A DNA stretch of 61,107 nt, the filler included, from an uncultured bacterium (GTDB lineage: Bacteria; Hinthialibacterota; Hinthialibacteria; Hinthialibacterales; Hinthialibacteraceae), in NCBI GenBank assembly GCA_964449065.1. It is 4 parts of 4 records of this genome, joined end to end, with 100 filler letters (N's around TTAATTAATTAA, not from the genome) between each part and the next. Parts side by side here need not be neighbours in the genome. Positions count along the whole stretch, not along the records: positions 30,638 to 45,837 come from CAYVAZ010000103.1; 3 more parts are not named here. The stretch is one strand, 5' to 3'. This document shows positions 33,421 to 45,937 of this stretch, piece after piece. Within the stretch, counting starts at the first letter, position 1. The number at the start of each line of letters is the position of its first letter. Position numbers and translations under genes: made by a program. The notes below the pieces were generated by a model that saw nothing but the letters and a program-made list of their open reading frames with translations, had not been told where the DNA came from and did no database searches.

Positions 33421-34878
33421 CTAAATTTTAAAACTCGGCACCATTGTCGCGCCGTATTGCTTCATCAATGAATTAAGGTGCTGCTGCAAGTCCTGCCGCA
33501 ATTCATAACTGGATGCGTCGCTGATCAAGTTGTTCATCTCTTTGGGATCATTGGATAAATCATACACTTCATCCAAATCAAACACGCCGTGATAGTGCAT
33601 GAACTTTTCGTTTTCCGTACGCACGCCCATCACTGTCGGGGTTTGCGGAAAGGCGGCTTCCCAGAAGTATTCATACAGCATGGCTTCCCGCCAGTTTACA
33701 TCTTCCCCGCGCAGAATCGGCAAGAACGATTCTCCCTGCACGCTTTCTGGAATTGGCGCGCCCGCGGCATCCAAGATGGTTGGGCAGATGTCAATATTTA
33801 AACCGATGCGGTCTGTCTCTTGATTGGGTTTGATCATCTCCGGGCAATGGGCGATCAGCGGAACGCGGATGGATTCTTCATACATACAGCGTTTGTCGAT
33901 GAGGCCATGCTCGCCGTGCAAAAAGCCGTTGTCACTCATAAACAGGACCAAGGTGTCTTCCAACTGCCCGGTTTCTTCCAGCGTATCCAGCACGCGGCCG
34001 ACGCTGTCATCCACCGCCAGCATGGTGCGGTTGTAATCCAGAATGAATTGATCGAAGTAGGTAAAGTCATGGTACATATAATCCACACCGTGCCAGCTGT
34101 GGCGTTGGCGGCGTACCCAGTTCGGTTTGCCTTCGTAGTTTTCTTTGGTGTCCGCCATGGAATCCGGAAATTGAATTTCGACATCCGAGTATTTGTCTTT
34201 ATGCCGTTCCGCCGGGAAAAACTCGGCATGAACCGCTTTATGGGATAGACACATATAATAAGGCTTGGTGTGGTCGCGTTTGATGTAATCCACCGCGTAG
34301 TCGGTCAGCATATCGGTGGTGTAGCCTTCATAATCATTGCGCTCACCGTTGATGTTTAACGTTGGATTGTAGTAACGCCCCTGCCCGCGGAAACTAACCC
34401 AATGGTCGAAGCCGGGACGCGGGTCATCCGAACTGCCGCCCATGTGCCATTTGCCTATGTAGGCGGTTTCATACCCGTTTTTCTGCAATTCCACCGGGAA
34501 GGTGGGTGTCCCTGCCGGCACGGGAGTTGAGTTGTTCATGACACCATGAACATGGGCATATTGCCCGGTTAAAACGCTGGCGCGGCTGGGGGAACACAAC
34601 GATGTGGTTACAAACGCGTTGTTGAACTTCATGCCATTGGCGGCCAGGCGGTCTAGGTTCGGGGTTTCCAAAAACGGGTGATTCATATTGCTCATCGAAT
34701 CAAAGCGCATGTCGTCGATGAAGATAAAGATGATATTGCGCTTTTTCTGCTGCGCCTGCGCGTCTGGTGTGTTGATGGTATTTACAAATGGAAAGGCTGC
34801 CGCGGCGGCCGCCCCGGTTTTCACAAAATCTCTCCGGCTGATTTGGCCGTTTTCTTTGGTGTATTGTTCTATTTTCAT
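33421..34878 (-). CDS. Tat-exported formylglycine-dependent sulfatase
   Basis: SRRDFVK; CSPSR; GKWHMG; SDNG. Confidence 0.93.
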   Translation of the reverse strand: MKIEQYTKENGQISRRDFVKTGAAAAAAFPFVNTINTPDAQAQQKKRNIIFIFIDDMRFDSMSNMNHPFLETPNLDRLAANGMKFNNAFVTTSLCSPSRASVLTGQYAHVHGVMNNSTPVPAGTPTFPVELQKNGYETAYIGKWHMGGSSDDPRPGFDHWVSFRGQGRYYNPTLNINGERNDYEGYTTDMLTDYAVDYIKRDHTKPYYMCLSHKAVHAEFFPAERHKDKYSDVEIQFPDSMADTKENYEGKPNWVRRQRHSWHGVDYMYHDFTYFDQFILDYNRTMLAVDDSVGRVLDTLEETGQLEDTLVLFMSDNGFLHGEHGLIDKRCMYEESIRVPLIAHCPEMIKPNQETDRIGLNIDICPTILDAAGAPIPESVQGESFLPILRGEDVNWREAMLYEYFWEAAFPQTPTVMGVRTENEKFMHYHGVFDLDEVYDLSNDPKEMNNLISDASSYELRQDLQQHLNSLMKQYGATMVPSFKI

Positions 34879-35272
34879 GGTTCTCTCCCCTAAATAATTC
34901 TTTCTGATTCTAAGGGAAAATATTGGTAAAATAAAGAGGTTTGGGATAGATATTCAACTGACAAGCAAATAATTTTGGTGCATGTTGTAACTTCTCTATA
35001 CCGCGAAAGATAAACCAACTCAATCCTAAAACGCTTAAACTTGCCCGCAACCCATCTTATGAAACCATCCAATGATTGGGGTGAATTAAAATATTTATGG
35101 ACTTAAAAAAATTATACCGACAAACATATAAATATGTGTATGTATCATATATGCATATAAATGAGTATGTTATGGAATATTTATTATTATTGTATATATA
35201 TGATAAATTCAGTTATGTTAATAATTTAATGTAATGCTATTAAATTATTAACATAATTTTTTTAAAAAAAAC

Positions 35273-35303
35273 TTGACAGTAAATGAGGGGGGGGGGCTAA
35301 TCT
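35273..35303 (+). promoter_or_regulatory. Sigma70-like promoter with a G10 tract in the spacer
   Basis: TTGACA 35273-35278; G10 35287-35296; candidate -10 TAATCT 35298-35303 (19-nt spacer); AT-rich upstream region; AGGAGG RBS downstream. Confidence 0.55.
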
Positions 35304-35344
35304 ATATAAATAATACGTTTTAAAAAAAAGTTAGGAGGAAAAAC

Positions 35345-35788
35345 ATGAAGAGATTTTTGGTTGTAAGTGGTTTTTTAAGTATCTTAACTGTTTATTTGTT
35401 GGTTTCAACGGGTGCAGCCTCATCAATGCGTGCATTGTCATTTGATGAGATGGAGAATTTGACAGGCGGGCAGACAACACCATGTACCTATTGTACGGAT
35501 TACAGTTGGAGAGTTAAAGGTGCAACACTTTGCGAAACGAATGGATATACCATAGTGTATGATGCCTTATGTCACCCTATCGGCGGCGATGATTGCGTTA
35601 ACCTTGATGAACTTGTGGATTGTAGTACCTGCATAAAAGAAGTGAAATATAAAAAAAACTCAGCTATTGATGGTGGAACTTCAGCAACGGTGCGTTCATT
35701 TTGCTGGGCCGGCACTCTTTATGATTGGAATTGCTCAGGAGGAGTAGAAATCGAAAGTACAATTATTGGAAGATTGACTTGCCCTTAA
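35345..35788 (+). CDS. Secreted Cys-rich precursor with double-glycine leader
   Basis: Signal peptide (about aa 1-25), then MRALSFDEMENLTGG, then a 105-aa core with 10 Cys. Confidence 0.75.
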   Translation: MKRFLVVSGFLSILTVYLLVSTGAASSMRALSFDEMENLTGGQTTPCTYCTDYSWRVKGATLCETNGYTIVYDALCHPIGGDDCVNLDELVDCSTCIKEVKYKKNSAIDGGTSATVRSFCWAGTLYDWNCSGGVEIESTIIGRLTCP

Positions 35789-35837
35789 AAGTAAAATTGT
35801 AAATGAATAAAAAAACCAATAACGAGAGGAAATAAAC

Positions 35838-36815
35838 ATGTTTGGAGTAATTAAAAAAACGACAATATATCTGGCAATATTCTTAACAACTGTCATATCA
35901 GTACAAGCACAATCCGAAACGGTTAAAGAACTCTTCCAAGCGGTAGATCAATCCATTTCCGGGGTAAAAATAACTACGCGGTCTACCACGATCACTCCGA
36001 AAGAACGATATAATGATATGGCGGCAATGAATCGAAACAATGCATTAATTAGACAAAGACAAACAAAAGAAAGAGTCGCACGAAGAAGTGAGAAAGTTGA
36101 GTTTAATTTTCCGGATGTGGAAGAAAGTTACCCCATGGCAACAGAAGATGTGTATAAAATAACTGAAAAAGAACTCATCTATGCGAATGGAGAAATACAA
36201 ATGACAGCCGAAATCTCCCCGGATTCGGCTGGAGGCAGTCAATTTATTCGACAAACGGTTTTGTTGGGATTAACGGAAGACATAACAATTATCTTTCACA
36301 AGGTGTCGAATGATACACTGGACCCGGCAATCGAACCTTTTGCTAGGATAGAGAAAAAACCAATCCCGACCAAGTTGTTTTCAAGAGGGGCACACGCATA
36401 TGGCAGAGGCTTATCCTCTTTTTCGGGAACCAACATGGTTATGTCCAAAGATACAGAGTCAGCGAACGAAGATAAATACATCATTTCCATTGAGGCTGGA
36501 AGTAATGAGCCGGAATTTACACATGCGGTTATTCATGTGGATAAATCCAAAGGATTTTGTTGGACGGATGCGTATTTTTATAATCAAGAAGTCTTGAAAG
36601 AGGAGCTTCATGCGTCTGATTTTCGATTGGTTGATGGGTACTGGTTCCCGTTTCACATGGAAAGCACTTTTTATCTTCCGGAAAGTGATAGAACAGAAGA
36701 AAACATTATAAACCACAGATCATTTTCTGAAATTACGTCGTTGGAAATCGATCCATCTTTAACTCTAAATGCGGAAAGTTTGATCACGCCAGATATGAAA
36801 GTTTACCGCCGATAG
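35838..36815 (+). CDS. Secreted hypothetical protein with LolA-like C-terminus
   Basis: Signal peptide ending VQA; C-terminal VDKSKGF...SDFRLVDGYWFPFHME pattern; GAGG RBS. Confidence 0.55.
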   Translation: MFGVIKKTTIYLAIFLTTVISVQAQSETVKELFQAVDQSISGVKITTRSTTITPKERYNDMAAMNRNNALIRQRQTKERVARRSEKVEFNFPDVEESYPMATEDVYKITEKELIYANGEIQMTAEISPDSAGGSQFIRQTVLLGLTEDITIIFHKVSNDTLDPAIEPFARIEKKPIPTKLFSRGAHAYGRGLSSFSGTNMVMSKDTESANEDKYIISIEAGSNEPEFTHAVIHVDKSKGFCWTDAYFYNQEVLKEELHASDFRLVDGYWFPFHMESTFYLPESDRTEENIINHRSFSEITSLEIDPSLTLNAESLITPDMKVYRR

Positions 36816-36914
36816 AGACTCAAAAATTGACGACGGGTGGGGTCTAATTGTGAAAAAAAAACAATTAGACCCTTCTTATTCCGTTTATCCAACCGCAATG
36901 CAGAGGATGATTCC

Positions 36915-38369
36915 ATGATACATAAGATCAAAAGAATTTTATTCTTGTTGATTCTATCTACTTCCAGTTTTGGTGCCCATAGCCAATACGAGACAGGAAA
37001 CAAGAATACTTGGCCTGATTTGGAAAACCATTCCGCTTACCATTACAAACGGTATCCCTGCGGTTTTAATGCCATGTATTATCTTCTTCAGCGATTGGAC
37101 AGGATGGCACAACTGAATGATGATGACAAAGAAACCTTATTAAAGATACCGGATATCGCAACTTTTAATCATTTACGGGAAATTAGCGGGAAGATAGGCG
37201 TTACATTGGAAGGGTTTCAAGTTACCTATAGTGAAATAAATGACTTTTCACTCATGATGACCATATTAGATGATGAACAGTATCAAGAAAATCATTATGT
37301 GGTGATTGAAAAAATAGATGATTCGGATCGATGGCTGGTGACGGATTGGCCTAATGCAAGATATACGCTTACTTCGAGTGAATTGCAAAAAATCACAAAT
37401 GGTTTCGTATTGGTTCCGGTCGAAAGCGTTGCAGAGTCCATACCCGGCCCGATACTCGTTGTGGATAGAAATCCAATAAATGTAGGAGATCATGAAAAAG
37501 ACGAAGTGTTCAATTTGCGTTATAAAGTATTCAATTATGGAACGAAACCCTTGACCATAGACGCAATAAATAGCACTTGCCAATGCACCATTCCAAATCT
37601 AAACCAAAAGTCAATAATGCCGGGTCAAAGCGAACTGTTCACAGTGGAAGTTACTACTTCTGAAAAAACTGGTGAGTGGAACGAATTCATCACGCTAAAA
37701 TGCAATGACACATATTTACCATCACCTGTAATAACTGTTTCCGGTAACAGTAAGCCATTATGGGAAATTTCAAAGGAAAAAATAGCATTTCGATATACTA
37801 CATTGTTTGACATCCGGGAAAAACAGATCGAATTAACCATAAAATTCAATACAAAAAAAGAATTACATCCGGATGATTTTATGATTGAAATTTTGTCAGA
37901 TACGTTTTTTCAATATCAAATCAATTCTCAATTGTTGGCCATGAAAAGGTCTGGTTTGACAAAGTCCTTTAAATATATGTTTACTTTGAATACGGATATG
38001 CTTGTCCCATTACTCGTTGATGGTGTTGTGATTATACAACACAAAACAAAGCCAGACATTGATATCAGAATCCCGCTATTTATACATCCCCCTAAAGATT
38101 TTCGGATTTATCCACAACCAGCAACACTTACATTAAATCAACCCGCATCTATTGAACTACAGGCTGGAGCAATCGACTTGGGAAATACAAAGATCATTTC
38201 TGATTTAGATTTTGTAACCGTAAGTAATGTAAGCACAACCAATCAAACTAATAACATGACTATCACAATTTATAAAGATTATAAGGAAAGTTTCCTGCCA
38301 TTAACCCTTATCAATGGTGATAGAAAAGCTACTATTGGCATTCCGGTGTTTTCAAGTACTTTATTTTAG
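36915..38369 (+). CDS. Secreted peptidase C39-like domain fused to DUF1573 Ig-like domain
   Basis: Signal peptide from ATG 36915; CGFNAMY...NHYVVIE...VTDWP (C-H-D); FNYGTKPLTIDAINSTCQCT...IMPG. Confidence 0.75.
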   Translation: MIHKIKRILFLLILSTSSFGAHSQYETGNKNTWPDLENHSAYHYKRYPCGFNAMYYLLQRLDRMAQLNDDDKETLLKIPDIATFNHLREISGKIGVTLEGFQVTYSEINDFSLMMTILDDEQYQENHYVVIEKIDDSDRWLVTDWPNARYTLTSSELQKITNGFVLVPVESVAESIPGPILVVDRNPINVGDHEKDEVFNLRYKVFNYGTKPLTIDAINSTCQCTIPNLNQKSIMPGQSELFTVEVTTSEKTGEWNEFITLKCNDTYLPSPVITVSGNSKPLWEISKEKIAFRYTTLFDIREKQIELTIKFNTKKELHPDDFMIEILSDTFFQYQINSQLLAMKRSGLTKSFKYMFTLNTDMLVPLLVDGVVIIQHKTKPDIDIRIPLFIHPPKDFRIYPQPATLTLNQPASIELQAGAIDLGNTKIISDLDFVTVSNVSTTNQTNNMTITIYKDYKESFLPLTLINGDRKATIGIPVFSSTLF

Positions 38370-38423
38370 TTGATAAAAGACTGAAAACGTTCTGCTATAT
38401 CCATCCAACTATCATTATCAAAT

Positions 38424-39170
38424 TTAATTTTCCCCCATGGGCTGCATGTTGCCGATCAGTTCCCAGCGGTTTTCCGCCCGGCGAACTTCCCATCCCTTGG
38501 GTTTGAATGTGCGGATTATCTCACGCGCCATCAAGCGGTTGCCGCGCGGGTTCATGTGCACGCCATCGGTGGTTAGCAGCTTTTCATCGTTTAACTTCAT
38601 TTCATACAGTTTCGTGAACGTGGCGAACAAATCGCACAATAGTACGTCTTGCTCTTTGGCTAGTTCACGCAGAAAGTCGTTGTATTTTCTTAACTTCTGG
38701 TTTTCTTTGCTGTCTACATTTTCATAGATGGGGGTGGCGGTTAACAGCAATACCTTTGCACCGGCATTTTTGCAGCGATTCACGATTTCGGTCATGTTTT
38801 TCTTATAGTCAGGCAATTCAACACCTTCGGGCTCAAACTTAAATTGATGCCACACATCGTTTACCCCGCATGAGATGCTGACCCAATCGGGATTGTGGCT
38901 GAGCACATCATCCTGCAGCCGCGCCAGCATATCGTTCGACTTATGCCCGCTGATGCCCGCATTGACGGCTTTGATTTCATAGCCGTTTACCCCGCAAAAG
39001 AGCTTGATCAGCGAGATGTAGCCTTCGGGCTTGGAAGCCGCTTGTGTGATGCTGTCACCCAAGAAAACGACCGTATCTCCGTCTTTCAGCATAAATTCAT
39101 TTTGGCTTAATGTCGTGCTTTCACTTAAAACCACCAGAAATAACCCTAAAAATAGCGATAAAATCTTCAT
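38424..39170 (-). CDS. SGNH/GDSL hydrolase
   Basis: FLGDSIT, NAGISG, GVND, DGVH. Confidence 0.92.
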   Translation of the reverse strand: MKILSLFLGLFLVVLSESTTLSQNEFMLKDGDTVVFLGDSITQAASKPEGYISLIKLFCGVNGYEIKAVNAGISGHKSNDMLARLQDDVLSHNPDWVSISCGVNDVWHQFKFEPEGVELPDYKKNMTEIVNRCKNAGAKVLLLTATPIYENVDSKENQKLRKYNDFLRELAKEQDVLLCDLFATFTKLYEMKLNDEKLLTTDGVHMNPRGNRLMAREIIRTFKPKGWEVRRAENRWELIGNMQPMGEN

Positions 39171-39700: not shown

Positions 39701-40567
39701 ATGATGGACGGAAGACTTTATAACGACAGAAATAAGTCGCGCAAAAAGCGCGGGTTTTCGATGATTGAGATGATCATCGTTATTGGTATCTTAGGCATCA
39801 TGATTGGCGTGGGTGCCACCAGTTTTGTGACCCAGGCCAACCGCAACCGCCTCAATACCACCAGCCGCATCATCTCCACCACCCTGCAGCAGGCGCGCCA
39901 GATGGCGATTGCGATGCGCCAAGACCGGCGGGTTGCAATTGACGCGGGAGAGTTGGACGGCTTTTCGAACAATGATATATCCGGTGTGCGGATTGAACCG
40001 GCCCGGATTTGGATTGAAGGCAAACGCTGTGAGCAGCTCCCATTCAGCGCGAACGCCGCGTGTCAAGGCGGCGGTACCGATCTTCCCAACGCCATTGAAT
40101 TGACCGATACCGAAAATTTGCCGGATGGCGTGATGATTGGGTTTGATGATGAAGTGCCCGGTATAGATGGCCCCAATATCTTTTATGTGGAATTTAGCCC
40201 GCGCGGTAATGTCAGCAAAGTGTATTATGAGGATGAAGAGCAAGAAACGCTTCCTAATTTTCATGAAGCGGTCATCTTTGTTATACGCGACAATGAGTCC
40301 TTCCAGCTGCGAAGCGGTACCGTGGATTATCATACTTTAGTCAATAATGGCAGAAGCCTTCCAGAATTTGAATTCAATCAAGGGGATGATAGAAGCAATA
40401 CGAACGAAGAAGTGATCCGCGAAGATTTAGAGCGCTATGACATCAACACCGTTGAAATCATCCGCTTAACCGGACGCACGCGTACGTATGATTATGCGGT
40501 TTTAGGTCCGTTCCCCTTGGACCATCCACCCGAATCAACAGATTTTGACCCTGATCTTAGACAATAG
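39701..40567 (+). CDS. Prepilin-type protein, GspH/FimT-like
   Basis: KKRG|FSMIEMIIV class III signal; LQQARQMAI. Confidence 0.8.
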   Translation: MMDGRLYNDRNKSRKKRGFSMIEMIIVIGILGIMIGVGATSFVTQANRNRLNTTSRIISTTLQQARQMAIAMRQDRRVAIDAGELDGFSNNDISGVRIEPARIWIEGKRCEQLPFSANAACQGGGTDLPNAIELTDTENLPDGVMIGFDDEVPGIDGPNIFYVEFSPRGNVSKVYYEDEEQETLPNFHEAVIFVIRDNESFQLRSGTVDYHTLVNNGRSLPEFEFNQGDDRSNTNEEVIREDLERYDINTVEIIRLTGRTRTYDYAVLGPFPLDHPPESTDFDPDLRQ

Positions 40568-40589
40568 GCGATAAGAGAGGAAAAGCATC

Positions 40590-42071
40590 ATGATATTCTT
40601 CTTGAAAGAATATAAAGACAAACAAGGACTTTCTTTAATTGAGGTGGTGGTCGCCGCCGCGATTATGGGAGTGGGTTTGCTCTCTATTGTGCAGATATTC
40701 CCATACGGTATTCAAGCCAGCCGCCGCTCGGAAGATTTAACCCAGGCCACCATGCTTGCCAATACCATCTTTGAGGGCCTCAAATCCGACCCGGTTAACT
40801 TCCCCATTTTGCCGAACGATTCGGATACATTGGTTCCTATCCCCGGTAACGGATTTGATGATGATACGAATAATTCGATGTTTGATCAAACCCGCACCCG
40901 CGGCCGCCGCGCTCCCGGCGACTTTAACAACAACGGCATTCCCGATACTGATTATGACGGTACGCCCGAACGCGATGGCTCCCCCCACTTTACCGGCCGG
41001 CCCAACGGCTTGGATGATGACGGCGACGGCGTCATCGATGACAGCGGCGACAGCAGCTCGAAAAGCTTTCAAGCCGTCCCGCGTTCATTTTCCCTTTTGG
41101 CCCCGGATGGCGATTACAACTACGATCCAGAACTCAATATCGATGAAGAATTCGCCGATGGTATCGATAATGACCGTGACGGGTTGATTGATGAAGATAC
41201 GCGGTTGCCGTCTGTCCGTATCGGCGGCAGCAACTTTATGATTCCCTGGATTGCGGGGGATGGAATAGATAACGATGGAGATGGCGAAGACAATGATAAT
41301 GATCCTAACACGCCCGCAATCGCCGATGGCTTAGACAACAATAATGACGGCCGGATAGACGAAGGCATCGATGAAGAAATTTGGGATGGACGGGACAATG
41401 ACGGCAACAATGGAGTGGATGAAGACACTCAACTCGCCGCGTTTCCCTTTATGCCGGCAAAATTAGCGCCTCCTTTTGACCGCTATAGTTGGCAAATCAG
41501 AGTAGGTAGTGTGCCCGATAATGGCAATTATGGCCTGATTGATAGGAATGGGGATGGAATTCCTGAACTTGGCGATGGCGTGGATAACGACGGTGATGGT
41601 TTGGTGGATGAAGAATTGCCCGACGGTTTGGACTTTGATTTCCCCGTTTCATCCACCGGACGCGGTTTGAATATTCAGGCCTATACCCGCCAGCCCACAT
41701 CCGACGGATTGGTGGATGAAGACACGGTTTCAGGCACGCTGCCGAACTGGCGCCGGGTTGAAATCATCATCACCTGGGGCGGCGACGGTGAGGACAATGA
41801 TGGAGATATGCAGTCTGTTGACCCAAGATTTGACGGCAGACGATCCGTCAGCCGTTCGACCATTTCATACAGTGGCATTACTTGGGGGATCGACGAAGAA
41901 AAAGAAGACGGGATTGACAACGATTTTGACGGCGAAATCGATGAAGATACCTATAAATTTGATTTTAAACTGGTTGGATTCATCAATTTGGATGATCCAT
42001 CCGAGTCGTTCACGTTTCGAAGTGGGCAGCCGAGAGGCATCGCGCCATCGATCGTTTCGAATATCCGGTAG
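40590..42071 (+). CDS. Prepilin-type protein, GspI/PilV-like, with acidic repeats
   Basis: KQG|LSLIEVVVA; ATMLANTIFE; RRVEIIITW; multiple DGxDNDxDGxxDE. Confidence 0.8.
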   Translation: MIFFLKEYKDKQGLSLIEVVVAAAIMGVGLLSIVQIFPYGIQASRRSEDLTQATMLANTIFEGLKSDPVNFPILPNDSDTLVPIPGNGFDDDTNNSMFDQTRTRGRRAPGDFNNNGIPDTDYDGTPERDGSPHFTGRPNGLDDDGDGVIDDSGDSSSKSFQAVPRSFSLLAPDGDYNYDPELNIDEEFADGIDNDRDGLIDEDTRLPSVRIGGSNFMIPWIAGDGIDNDGDGEDNDNDPNTPAIADGLDNNNDGRIDEGIDEEIWDGRDNDGNNGVDEDTQLAAFPFMPAKLAPPFDRYSWQIRVGSVPDNGNYGLIDRNGDGIPELGDGVDNDGDGLVDEELPDGLDFDFPVSSTGRGLNIQAYTRQPTSDGLVDEDTVSGTLPNWRRVEIIITWGGDGEDNDGDMQSVDPRFDGRRSVSRSTISYSGITWGIDEEKEDGIDNDFDGEIDEDTYKFDFKLVGFINLDDPSESFTFRSGQPRGIAPSIVSNIR

Positions 42072-42107
42072 ATAGAGGTAATAGATTACGTTCTGGAGAA
42101 AAGCATA

Positions 42108-43448
42108 ATGAAGCCAAATCCAGGTAGGACAGAGAAAACAAAATATCATTCCAAAAAGGCGTTCACGCTGATTGAGATTATGATTTCAATGGGCGTGTTG
42201 TCGATCCTTGCTGGAATCGCGGCGCAAACGTTTGTGGCGATTTTAGACTCGCGCGATGTCGCCTTAAAGCGGTTGGAAGTGAACGAGAACGCCCGAACGG
42301 TATTGGATTTTATCAGCGCGGATATCCGCACGGCTTATTTAACACCGGATTCCATTAAACCCGTGAATCCCCGCAATATTCAAGAAGGGACTCCCCGGTT
42401 TCGCTTTGCGGGCATTCACCGTGATATTTCGACCGAAGATGAACCGGGGATACCTGGTGCCGGCATTGATGATGACGGTGACGGCTTGATTGATGAAGAA
42501 GTGCTGGATGGAGTCGGAGGCGATTATCCTGGTGGTGCGGTTACCTCCCTTAAAAGCGGCAGAGCGCAAGAAGACCCCGGCTGTACCCGGGTGGATGATG
42601 AAGGGAATATTCTATTCAATGATGCCTCTTGTGTTGACGAAGATATTGGGTTGATCCCCAGTGATGTCCTTCACTTTGTCAGTGCGGTCGAAAACTCCGG
42701 TCAAACCATACTGCAAGAAATTTCATACGGATTGAATCCGGAAGGCACCCGGTTGGTACGGCGTGCGCAAGTGCTATCGCTTGACGGTGGCTCCCGCGCC
42801 CGCGTAGAACTGATTGATTTTGGCCAGTTTGTTGATAACGCAACCCGCAAGCGGTTGGTACCGCAGGCACCGGCTATTGGAGCCCCGGTTTCCCGTTCTG
42901 CCGTACGCGCTTCGGTTCAGAACTGGAACGATGGATCGAAATTTGGTCAACTCCAAGCGCGGTCCAGTAACTTTACCAATCAAAACCCGGCCAAATTGTT
43001 TCAAGTGTTGGCGTATGATATCCGCGGCTTGCGCTTTCGCTATTGGTATTACGATTACAACCGCGGCGGCTGGCGTTTTACCCGCGAATGGGATTCCGCC
43101 CGTGAAACCGCTTTGCTCACGCCGGGAGAAAACCTGTTTAATCAGCCTGCGCTGAACAGTGGAATTGAAGGAAGAAATCGAATGGGGTTCGAGAACATTA
43201 TCGTCAATGAACCGGAAGATATGTATCCGCGGATAGGGGGGATGGATTTTTTGGTGCGCAGTCCGCGGCAACTTACCAGTTCAAATGAATTTACGGAATC
43301 CCTACAAAGTATTGCGAAACAGACAGATGGATTGCCGAACATGGTGGAAATCACGGTCTACGCGCAAGACCGCGAACGTACCTTAAACCCAAGAGCGTTT
43401 ACAACCCGTGTGTTTGTTCCAAACAACTACCGCAGTTTGGGTATATAA
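42108..43448 (+). CDS. Prepilin-type protein, GspJ/PilW-like
   Basis: KKA|FTLIEIMIS; ARTVLDFISADIRTA; LRFRYW; LPNMVEITV. Confidence 0.8.
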   Translation: MKPNPGRTEKTKYHSKKAFTLIEIMISMGVLSILAGIAAQTFVAILDSRDVALKRLEVNENARTVLDFISADIRTAYLTPDSIKPVNPRNIQEGTPRFRFAGIHRDISTEDEPGIPGAGIDDDGDGLIDEEVLDGVGGDYPGGAVTSLKSGRAQEDPGCTRVDDEGNILFNDASCVDEDIGLIPSDVLHFVSAVENSGQTILQEISYGLNPEGTRLVRRAQVLSLDGGSRARVELIDFGQFVDNATRKRLVPQAPAIGAPVSRSAVRASVQNWNDGSKFGQLQARSSNFTNQNPAKLFQVLAYDIRGLRFRYWYYDYNRGGWRFTREWDSARETALLTPGENLFNQPALNSGIEGRNRMGFENIIVNEPEDMYPRIGGMDFLVRSPRQLTSSNEFTESLQSIAKQTDGLPNMVEITVYAQDRERTLNPRAFTTRVFVPNNYRSLGI

Positions 43449-43478
43449 CCCTTGAAGCCGCAGGCAGAGGAAGCAGTT

Positions 43479-45837
43479 ATGAATACGTTAAACAAACAAT
43501 TAACACTACCGCGTCAACCCAAAACGAATCCCAAAAAAGGGATCGCGTTGATCACCGTGCTCGCGTTTTTATCCATTTTCGCGATCATCATGGTTTCGTT
43601 TGTGTTCTCGATTCGCATTGAAGAGGTCACCACGCAAAACTATTCGGACAGCATCAACATTGAGCAGGCTTCCGAAGCCGCCATTCAGGCGGTTCTCAGC
43701 CAAGTGGCGCGCGATTTAGACACCAGCGAACCCAATATGATACTGGGGCGTCCGCAGCCGCGTTATATTTCGTTGCTGGACCCGTGGGCGGTGGGGTATG
43801 CCGGTCAAGCCGGGCCGCGTGTGCTGTATGATGCCCGCAGCTATCAGGTGGATATCCGCCCTGAACGTCAGTTCCGCCGCGCGGGCATGCAAGTGTATCC
43901 CACACCGATTCCACTGGGTGTGGATGAAGACCCCGAAGGCGATGTCACTGGATTCCAGCGCATTGTTCCCAATAACCAACGGGGGCGTGGAGACGGCTTT
44001 CCCGGTTTGGCAAATATCGACGATAGTTTGGATGGCTTGGTGGATAACGGCGGCGATACCGATTTGGCTGAAGATGATGATGAAGACTTTTTGCTGAATG
44101 AAGATCCGATGGATCTACGGCGTCCCGATTTAGGGGGTTCCGGTTTTTTCTTCCCTGCCGGTACCGGTTATGATGCCGACGGCGACCGTTTGGGTGTCAC
44201 AGATGAAAGCGCGAAACTTAACATCAACTTTGCGGGGAATAACAACAGCAACAGCAATCAGTATACTTACAATCTCGGCACTGGCCCTTCCGAACTGGAT
44301 TTGCCGGCTTACATCTATGGCCGGGTATTTCGTTTTTTAACCACAGGCGGTAATGTGTCACAACTCAATGCGCAGCAAGCCCAAGAAATTGCGGAACAGA
44401 TCGTCAACTTCCGCTATGGCAGCACGGGCGATGGCGGTCAATCACCCGCCAAACCGGGTGTGGATAATGCCGATGATAATTTAAACAACTCGCCTCAAAT
44501 ATTTGACGTCATTGAATTCAGCCAAGCCTACCAAACCAGCACCTTTGACGGCGAACCCTTTGCCATCGTAGGCGATGAATTGGATAACGATGACGATGGA
44601 TTTTTAAATGAAGAAGACGAACGCTACATCGGCCCCGCGACCGAAAACCAAAGCGGTACGCCGCTAACCGATGGGATTATTCGAACCCAAAACGGCGAAG
44701 AATTCCGGATGGGTGATAAAGTAGATAACGACGGCGACGGCTTTATCGATGAACAAAACGAGGGCATTGATGATTCATCTGAGTTTGATGTGTTCAAGCC
44801 CAAAGGCGATGACCGCCCGTATGCCTCTTCCGATGATTTAAAATTACTGGACGCGATACCGGATAGCGACCCGCCATTTGTGGTAAACGCGCCGCCATCT
44901 TTGTTTCAAATCTTACAGTCTTCCACCACGATTTTTAGCCAATCCGATCAAGTAGCAGGACCCATGAGCGGCAAAAATAATGAAGTGGCTAAAATCAACC
45001 CCAACATGATCAGCAATTGGCGCGCGGTCGATGTGTGGGAACAAGGCGACCCGGTCTCCAACCGCGCCGATTTTCAATACACCTCAGCCATGAAGGTGGA
45101 AGAACTGCTGCCCGCGTTGCAAGTGGATAACGACGGCGATTGGCAGATGTTTGCCGAACCGGATGTGATGAACGGCCAAGCCGATGGCATTGATAATGAC
45201 GGCGACGGCTTGGTGGATGAATCGTCCGATGATTGGGATGGAAACTTATATGCCAGTGGAGATTTCGACAGTTTTTCGGAAGCCGATACCGCATCGCTTG
45301 CCCTGCAAAATAGTATTGACGATGATGGCGACGGCCAAACCCGCGATGAAAACCGTCCGGGAGAAGATGTTGTCCGCCGTAAACGCGTACTGGGTACCGA
45401 AGAAGGCGGTGATGATGAAAATGAAGAAGTTACTTTCCGTCCGCGCGAAGAGAGAGAAATCGAGATCCGGATGGGGATGGTTGCCGAAGGCGACGGCGCC
45501 GACAACGACGGCGATGGTATCATCGATGATGACGGCGATTTCAATGGTGACAACATTATTACGTATGACCCCGAATGGCATGTGAATGAAGACGGCCCTG
45601 GCGATCTGAGCGGTGACGGCTACCCCGGATTGGGCGGCAATCCTGAAATGCGGGATGAAGACAATGCGGAAGGCGATATTGTCCGCAGACCCGATGTAAC
45701 GGATGATCTGCTGGTGACCAGTTTTGCCGATGACGATTTTGACGGGTTTGCCGATTTTAATGATCCGCAAGTTCTTGCGGCGATGTATACGCCGGAACTG
45801 GATGGTGTGGATAACGACGGCGACGGCGCGGTGGATG
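43479..45837 (+). CDS. GspK/PilX-like protein with acidic repeats, truncated at scaffold end
   Basis: KKG|IALITVL (no Glu5, typical of GspK/PilX); ASEAAIQ; DESAKLNIN; many DNDGDG repeats. Confidence 0.78.
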
Positions 45838-45937
45838 NNNNNNNNNNNNNNNNNNNNNNNNNNNNNNNNNNNNNNNNNNNNTTAATTAATTAANNNNNNN
45901 NNNNNNNNNNNNNNNNNNNNNNNNNNNNNNNNNNNNN
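45838..45937. other. Artificial scaffold linker
   Basis: N-run with TTAATTAATTAA. Confidence 0.95.

Follow-up and report, generated by a model that had tools for sequence, protein, structure and literature searches.

What does a C39 peptidase act on when it carries a predicted signal peptide of its own, adjoins a signal-bearing candidate substrate and lies apart from any ATP-binding cassette (ABC) transporter gene? The question is raised by a three-gene cassette in a 61,107-nucleotide stretch of DNA (the window) from an uncultured bacterium of the Hinthialibacterota (GCA_964449065.1), in which contigs C101–C104 of the source genome are joined and the cassette lies on C103; C-numbers denote contigs of this genome, L-numbers loci fetched for comparison and P-numbers proteins. 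The cassette encodes, on the plus strand throughout, a small cysteine-rich cargo (P0001, 147 amino acids (aa); 35345–35788), a LolA-superfamily protein (P0002, 325 aa; 35838–36815) and a C39–DUF1573 protein (P0003, 484 aa; 36915–38369). Where C39 is kept, in three or more phyla, the cargo also keeps a double-glycine-type leader, and the C39-free lineage or lineages lack it. The cassette probably directs the maturation, in two steps in the periplasm, of a secreted and variable interaction protein.

A double-glycine-type leader behind a predicted signal peptide

P0001 comprises a hydrophobic segment (residues 4–20), a signal peptidase I-like end near Ala24/25 (assigned by eye), a propeptide extending to Gly41–Gly42, and a core of 105 aa (11.4 kDa, pI 4.6, charge about −5) holding ten cysteines, all of them after Gly42. 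The leader, Leu31 to Gly42 (LSFDEMENLTGG, followed by Gln; 35435–35470, plus strand), places Leu at −12, Glu at −8, Met at −7, Leu at −4 and Gly at −2 and −1. It agrees with 7/7 positions of a consensus that was fixed after the sequences had been seen and later checked against papers, a score attained by 0/500 shuffles; the key positions for LahT and ComA are a hydrophobic residue at −12, −7 and −4 and Glu at −8, before an end in Gly-Gly/Ala/Ser (PMC6363468, PMC10885120). The curated precursor model TIGR04149 stays at 11 bits (cut-off 25; E 0.27), and the leader lies behind the hydrophobic segment, not at the extreme N-terminus as in substrates of peptidase-containing ABC transporters (PCATs). 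Two close homologues were found, and in the full-length one (P0156) the leader and all ten cysteines are kept although the signal peptide has drifted. An AlphaFold2 (AF2) model has a signal helix at residues 3–25 and a leader helix at 33–39, with no confident fold for the core (predicted local distance difference test score (pLDDT) <50 from residue 46). An atlas search with P0001 gave no usable match, and a weak cysteine-rich match of the cargo profile to uromodulin in the PDB (E 0.025) was treated as chance.

All three N-termini combine a basic n-region with a hydrophobic h-region (best 11-residue Kyte–Doolittle means 2.55, 2.49 and 2.17 in gene order) and close in a signal peptidase I-like end (by eye), from which signal peptides are inferred on all three proteins; no lipobox was seen in any of them by eye.

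A C39 domain fused to DUF1573

The longest frame of gene 3 opens at GTG 36837, and the ATG at 36915, preceded by a ribosome-site-like AGAGGA, opens the signal-like N-terminus. P0003 matches Peptidase_C39 (PF03412) at 32.9 bits (cut-off 22) and DUF1573 (PF07610) at 52.2 bits (cut-off 26.1); C39 and DUF1573/Ig are its only domain matches, without the transmembrane or ABC domains of PCAT proteins or of AMS proteins (ABC transporters for maturation and secretion). The catalytic set is Cys49, His127 and Asp144, and a profile of nine relatives matches PCAT1 and LahT147 (6mpz, E 2.5e-9), these three residues being aligned. Among 45 C39–DUF1573 proteins, picked for their length and for where the match falls, most of them among the 150 best matches, the triad is kept at 44/45 (Cys), 44/45 (His) and 38/45 (Asp). 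The C-terminal part consists of a DUF1573/HYDIN-like Ig domain carrying C222-Q-C224, the DUF1573 region overlapping a HYDIN/VesB Ig-like model, and then further Ig-like sequence; Cys222 is present in 44/45 and Cys224 in 43/45 of the same proteins.

The account of the sequence-only reading, namely a double-glycine leader with a cysteine-rich core, a C39 domain joined to DUF1573, and signals at all three N-termini as judged from the hydropathy pattern, is thus borne out, as is its claim that the island holds neither an ABC exporter nor a modifying enzyme. No ABC Walker A motif was found on the same strand within 5 kb of the genes of the insert, and no modifying enzyme of ribosomally synthesised and post-translationally modified peptides (radical SAM, LanM, YcaO or similar) is among its three genes. 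The genome (87% complete) has only two C39 matches, both in cassettes of the same type and neither a PCAT.

A putative partner with a LolA-superfamily fold

The Pfam LolA_like model reaches 24.4 bits on P0002, missing its cut-off of 30, and a LolA-superfamily fold is supported instead by searches with an AF2 model (pLDDT 76, predicted template modelling score 0.64). All six Foldseek matches at E <0.001 (6/6) are LolA-superfamily proteins, among them 3bk5, Porphyromonas gingivalis LolA3 (9tp6), NE2245 (3buu) and the DUF1329 protein 4z48 (E 9e-6 to 1e-4), and the three best rows of a VIA alignment have Z 11.3, 11.1 and 10.7 (root-mean-square deviation 4.4 and 211 residues aligned for the first). 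The modelled fold is alike, although sequence identity to these structures is just 9–15%. Lipoprotein transport is not implied for P0002, because the cargo lacks a lipobox, and a reading of the partner as a lipoprotein carrier was rejected, a lipobox-like motif occurring in 6/47 DUF1573 proteins and in none of this insert; in Flavobacterium johnsoniae, deletion of lolA3 is reported to leave gliding and amylase secretion unaffected (PMC11885536). A complex prediction for the LolA-like protein and the cargo scored 0.01, with an uncertain cargo fold, and counts neither for nor against an interaction. An orphan LolA-like paralogue (36% identity) stands elsewhere in the genome (C43:3399–4553; L198) with no adjoining cargo or DUF1573 gene.

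Related cassettes and their composition

Loci were fetched around DUF1573 and C39 matches in 35 genomes of the phylum and by DNA pattern, and two samples of 51 genomes each, one Armatimonadota-centred and the other Planctomycetota-centred, gave further loci, a hand-picked part of the matches. Of 116 loci with a DUF1573 match, 52 yielded an automatic signal-plus-Cys-rich candidate, and curation by hand gave 33 cargos from 29 C39 loci and 20 cargos from 18 C39-free loci. C58, L093, L146 (LolA-like–C39 fusions, without DUF1573) and L191 were added to the cargo set by hand; candidates in L031, L068, L163, L166, L169, L180 and C176 were removed as off-frame or unrelated, as were extra candidates in L033, L037, L058, L093 and L138; those of L042 and L017 and the frameshifted C6 cargo were set aside too. 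C39 loci in which no cargo was seen were left out (L085, L144 and L145, and L008, L068, L120 and L129 near contig ends), and L034 was classed as C39-free despite an unfused C39 4.5 kb away. In the pattern scans, 3/38 metagenome loci and 11/41 genome-scan loci proved to be true C39–DUF1573 loci.

Five cassettes of this plan, all AT-rich (GC 0.33–0.38), are present in the source genome, those on C103 and C58 with C39 and those on C68, C167 and C6 without it; cassettes like these are found in three or more phyla. The CxC motif of DUF1573 is present in 39/47 loci, and a same-strand Walker A within 5 kb was found in 0/47, some of which end at contig edges; the sequence-only reading is supported in placing the leader/protease pair outside a PCAT. 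Net charge is ≤0 for 33/33 cores in C39 loci and 17/20 in C39-free loci. Cores vary in length and cysteine spacing and align poorly, and none of the 53 cargos has a Pfam or NCBIfam match above cut-off, bacteriocin families included. In one C39-free group, the partner proteins share homology with the LolA-like proteins of the C39 loci (hhalign 95%, E 2.7e-8; atlas 0.95). A membrane protein with a DIWWH-like motif and no Pfam match, which we take to be GT-C-like, accompanies 9/19 C39-free loci as against 0/28 C39 loci. Most DUF1573 genes lie outside such cassettes; among the planctomycete and armatimonad DUF1573-only loci (L149–L194), a cargo was seen in one (L191).

Several loci depart from the common plan. 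The second C39 cassette of the genome (C58:5283–8071; L199) has a degenerate leader (4/7) and a C39–DUF1573 gene frameshifted at a G/A homopolymer run, possibly through assembly error, and the C39-free cassette on C6 (7773–12066; L197) has a cargo frameshifted at a T run just past the signal-like segment. In two loci of the Armatimonadota-centred sample (L146:1570–6357 and L145:3960–5441), a LolA-like domain is fused to a C-terminal C39 domain without DUF1573, and the cargo leaders of L146 finish in A-G. Cargo and partner genes are duplicated as pairs in L027 (210–5730) and L051 (2120–5354), suggesting cognate pairing.

Co-occurrence of leader and protease

A leader scoring at least 5/7 was found in 23/33 cargos of C39 loci, one of these scores (L148) being a misplaced match inside the signal peptide, versus 0/20 cargos of C39-free loci; at a threshold of at least 4/7 the counts are 31/33 and 3/20, and within the phylum of the window alone they are, at 5/7 or better, 5/9 and 0/19. 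The neighbourhood test proposed in the sequence-only reading, which had predicted double-glycine-type leaders behind the signal peptides of C39-adjacent cargos, therefore came out as expected. A measure that makes no use of the motif points the same way: the median spacer from the h-region to the cysteine core is 24 residues in cargos of C39 loci versus 10 in those of C39-free loci, a difference of about one leader length. Gly at −2 is nearly invariant in the cargo alignment, weak TIGR04149 matches occur in 3/33 cargos of C39 loci versus 0/20 of C39-free loci, and loci of Planctomycetota and Armatimonadota still have the leader though the cores align poorly.

On the best reading of these sequences, the leader and C39 would form an optional module, set on a constant part made up of cargo, an exported partner of ~300 aa and DUF1573; trimming would be an optional step because the related cassettes without the protease are also without the tag.

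A model for cargo maturation

Set beside the observed anatomy, folds, triad, leader, insertion and co-occurrence, the probable two-step maturation can be put as follows: a mobile, polymorphic cassette would yield one disulfide-rich, acidic mini-protein, processed in two steps outside the cytoplasm. All three proteins would leave via Sec and lose their signal peptides. A propeptide of ~17 residues would stay on the cargo, its helix docking on C39 through Leu31, Met36 and Leu39, and, as knowledge of the family and the co-occurrence would suggest, cleavage after Gly42 would release a 105-aa protein starting QTTPC. The CxC of DUF1573 and the Ig-like domains may then hold the cargo and aid the formation of its five possible disulfides, a less secure step, and, least securely of all, the LolA-like protein could be the cognate partner of the cargo, as carrier or neutraliser. 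The product would most likely be a variable interaction protein that acts on the cell surface or farther out, having perhaps left by a general route, for example through a secretin system of the genome, in which seven secretin matches were found. The existence of LolA-like–C39 fusions (L146) speaks for such a pathway.

A number of observations weigh against this model. The residue six before Cys49 is His43, not Gln, and Gln is found there in 6/45 relatives; the LahT structure is cited as questioning the role of this Gln (PMC6363468). Ten of the 33 cargos in C39 loci score ≤4, several leaders there end in G-R, G-W, G-L, G-N or A-G, some C39–DUF1573 loci have no cargo (L085, and L144 with WD40 proteins instead), and L034 pairs its unfused C39 with a leaderless cargo. 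CxC is missing from 8/47 DUF1573 domains, LolA-like Pfam models match only 5/51 partner proteins, and homology to the LolA-like set was shown neither for the partners of a glycosyltransferase-linked group (A9) nor for a mixed set (A11). The DUF1573 tree is poorly resolved (14/58 branches starred) and, with L148 recoded as leader-negative, contains one supported independent pair only (four on the best tree); a single clade of all 19 C39-free cassettes was not rejected (p-value of the approximately unbiased test 0.65), and the co-occurrence of leader and C39 may be one event, since the C39-free set may be one clade.

A wider and more tentative proposal, which we hold to be possible and somewhat doubtful, is that, in diderm phyla that have been little studied, these loci constitute an undescribed, widespread assembly line making disulfide-rich mini-proteins in the periplasm, in which the CxC-bearing DUF1573 would fold the cargo, a cognate LolA-fold protein would carry or neutralise it, and the leader/C39 module would serve as an activation switch. 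If true, DUF1573 and the orphan LolA-like proteins would gain functions, hypervariable disulfide mini-proteins would be defined as a large bacterial family, and a periplasmic C39 would for the first time have a defined substrate.

Relation to known systems

PCAT and AMS exporters (LahT, PCAT1, ComA) share with the cassette the C39 fold and the Cys-His-Asp triad, and their substrates share with P0001 the hydrophobic residues at −12, −7 and −4, Glu at −8 and a Gly-Gly leader. Unlike them, the cassette has no ABC or transmembrane domains and no modifying enzymes, its C39 is fused to DUF1573, and protease and substrate both carry Sec-type signals, with the leader placed behind the signal peptide. 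A precedent is the Fap system of Pseudomonas, in which FapD is described as a Sec-exported periplasmic C39 with an unclear target, and its C38A mutation as abolishing Fap secretion (PMC5557850); it was the sole periplasmic C39 found in the literature searched. The cassette resembles Fap, for which cleavage at GG/GA is suspected, in combining a Sec-exported periplasmic C39 with a Sec-exported cargo, here judged from hydropathy. It differs in its near-canonical leader, in lacking a FapF-like channel and amyloid repeats, in its cysteine-rich cargo, and in having the LolA-like and DUF1573 parts, which the Fap operon as described does not include.

The suggestion that a Sec-exported periplasmic C39 would be without precedent accordingly falls away with the account of FapD in PMC5557850, and the novelty would be that double-glycine/C39 processing, built from known parts, has moved to the periplasm. 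In the literature on DUF1573, C39, double-glycine leaders with Sec signals and LolA-like proteins, a search that covered few subscription journals, the cassette was not found described. It offers a periplasmic C39 with a near-textbook site together with natural negative controls in the same genome, would show double-glycine processing uncoupled from ABC export and acting on a Sec-exported, disulfide-bonded cargo, and ties two families of unknown function, DUF1573 and the orphan LolA-like proteins, to a pathway.

The CxC of the cassette DUF1573 domain is shared with DUF1573/OS_HP2 (seleno)proteins, DUF1573 being listed as a UGC selenoprotein (PMC9312934); the model NF041425 reaches 36 bits on this domain, with a cut-off of 100. 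MauE, reported as able to replace DsbB (bioRxiv 10.64898/2026.03.05.709764), offers a further comparison, as MauE genes occur in L063 and a DUF1573 gene lies near a MauE/DoxX-like gene in C176 (by eye); this insert, unlike MauE-based folding systems, contains no MauE, and the redox role of its DUF1573 is a putative one.

Alternative explanations

Envelope signalling, in which the cut cargo would be a signal or ligand, the LolA-fold protein would be RseB/MucB-like and output would pass through an extracytoplasmic function (ECF) sigma factor or response regulator, is considered unlikely. Its best case is L016 (4457–6915), where an ECF-type sigma gene and the start of a C39–DUF1573 protein overlap, the protein having a long N-terminal extension and hydrophobic segment, like anti-sigma factors; such an extension was counted by eye in 7/45 family members, with P0059, P0076, P0086, P0094, P0107 and P0131 similar to L016. 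Sigma factors in L050, L077, L084 and L044 and response regulators in L022 and C6, a hand-picked set not counted systematically, fit the same idea, as do the MucB/RseB N-terminal domain name of the top atlas cluster for the C68 partner and the operator-like repeat upstream of gene 1. Against these, no regulator gene is present in this insert, regulators nearby may merely control the cassette, and the best structure matches of P0002 are LolA-like and DUF1329 proteins, RseB not being among the rows listed.

That the cargo is instead the subunit of a Fap-like fibre or surface layer, kept soluble by its propeptide until the C39 cut and chaperoned by the Ig-like domains, is improbable. FapD, the tandem cargo paralogues of L064 (three) and C167 (two) and the HYDIN/VesB Ig-like overlap of DUF1573 would suit such a structure; no FapF-like channel is found among the three genes, however, no Asn/Gln amyloid repeats are visible, core length and cysteine spacing differ, and prepilin genes lie near 6/47 loci, not above the ~0.21 expected from prepilin density in this genome.

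That the cargo is a bacteriocin-like toxin and the LolA-like protein its immunity factor likewise has little probability. The AT-rich insert at a site empty in relatives, the presence of five divergent cassettes within a single genome and the pairwise cargo/partner duplication in L027 and L051 would all be in keeping with a toxin, and the earlier statement that no immunity gene is present becomes uncertain because the LolA-like gene is duplicated along with the cargo in some loci. Other loci, however, hold several cargos per single partner, the search for bacteriocin families gave nothing above cut-off, and the class II (cationic) criterion of a short cationic core does not describe P0001, whose core has 105 aa and a pI of 4.6. 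A classical bacteriocin, which the sequence-only reading had named among the possible products, is disfavoured because the cores are acidic (none of the 33 in C39 loci has a positive net charge); a toxin that binds a receptor and does not act on membranes is a lesser possibility against which the charge does not speak.

That the C39 domain is no more than a tether for the leader, as the inactive C39-like domain is in HlyB, or has some other substrate is very improbable: its divergence (32.9 bits, with relatives in L022 and L030 below the Pfam cut-off), the non-canonical −1 residues of several leaders and the C39 loci without cargo would allow it, but the retention of Cys and His in 44/45 and of Asp in 38/45 proteins and the near-invariant Gly at −2 argue otherwise.

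Insertion site and genomic surroundings

The AT-rich insert as a whole (GC 0.363) occupies 34879–38423, between a sulfatase gene with a twin-arginine translocation (TAT) signal (33421–34878, minus strand) and a GDSL/SGNH hydrolase gene (38424–39170, minus strand), both of them host genes outside the system. GC content is 0.378 for the three genes versus 0.474 for the genome, and is equally low in 19/1489 3-kb windows. An orthologue of the SGNH gene is present in 19/19 family genomes, and the insertion site is empty in the 7/7 relatives with fetched DNA, the SGNH gene running into the orthologous sulfatase directly in 5/7 and with one prepilin-type gene between in 2/7 (in L208 the sulfatase is identified from its start at the locus edge alone). 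With the site empty in all seven, the cassette is an insertion to which they do not belong, in agreement with its initial description as an AT-rich, co-oriented island between sulfatase and hydrolase. No flanking direct repeats of note were found around the insert.

In the AT-rich region upstream of gene 1, a perfect 18-bp inverted repeat with an 8-nt loop (35213–35256) may be an operator or hairpin; 0/300 Markov sequences attain 18 bp (maximum 13), and the exact arm is found nowhere else in the genome. A promoter and terminator scan gave ten promoter-like sites versus 14.6 in shuffles, no excess.

A link to the pseudopilin genes from 39701 onward was rejected, as these flank the SGNH gene in cassette-free relatives too and adjacency is at chance level. 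They belong to a cluster (39701–45893 of the window), conserved beside the SGNH gene in relatives, whose prepilin-type products (N_methyl) are large, acidic and rich in Asp.

Other DUF1573 and C39-like loci

L144 (3970–6400 and upstream) contains a C39-like/DUF1573 gene amid paralogous WD40 proteins with a common N-terminal motif and TAT-like signals, together with probable radical SAM genes, and is a different system. Two C39-free DUF1573 loci, L042 (7285–7968) and L017 (a 301-aa protein), encode larger secreted proteins with GGQ-TPTP right after the probable signal site, which were left out of leader scoring. On C176 (1500–3478) and in L018 (5959–8225), a conserved DUF1573 gene has rhodanese-like and MauE/DoxX-like genes next to it (by eye) and possibly marks a housekeeping periplasmic redox locus. 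In L009–L012, stand-alone cytoplasmic C39-like proteins adjoin a RimK-like ATP-grasp gene (by eye), a pairing from three family genomes (L009, L011 and L012).

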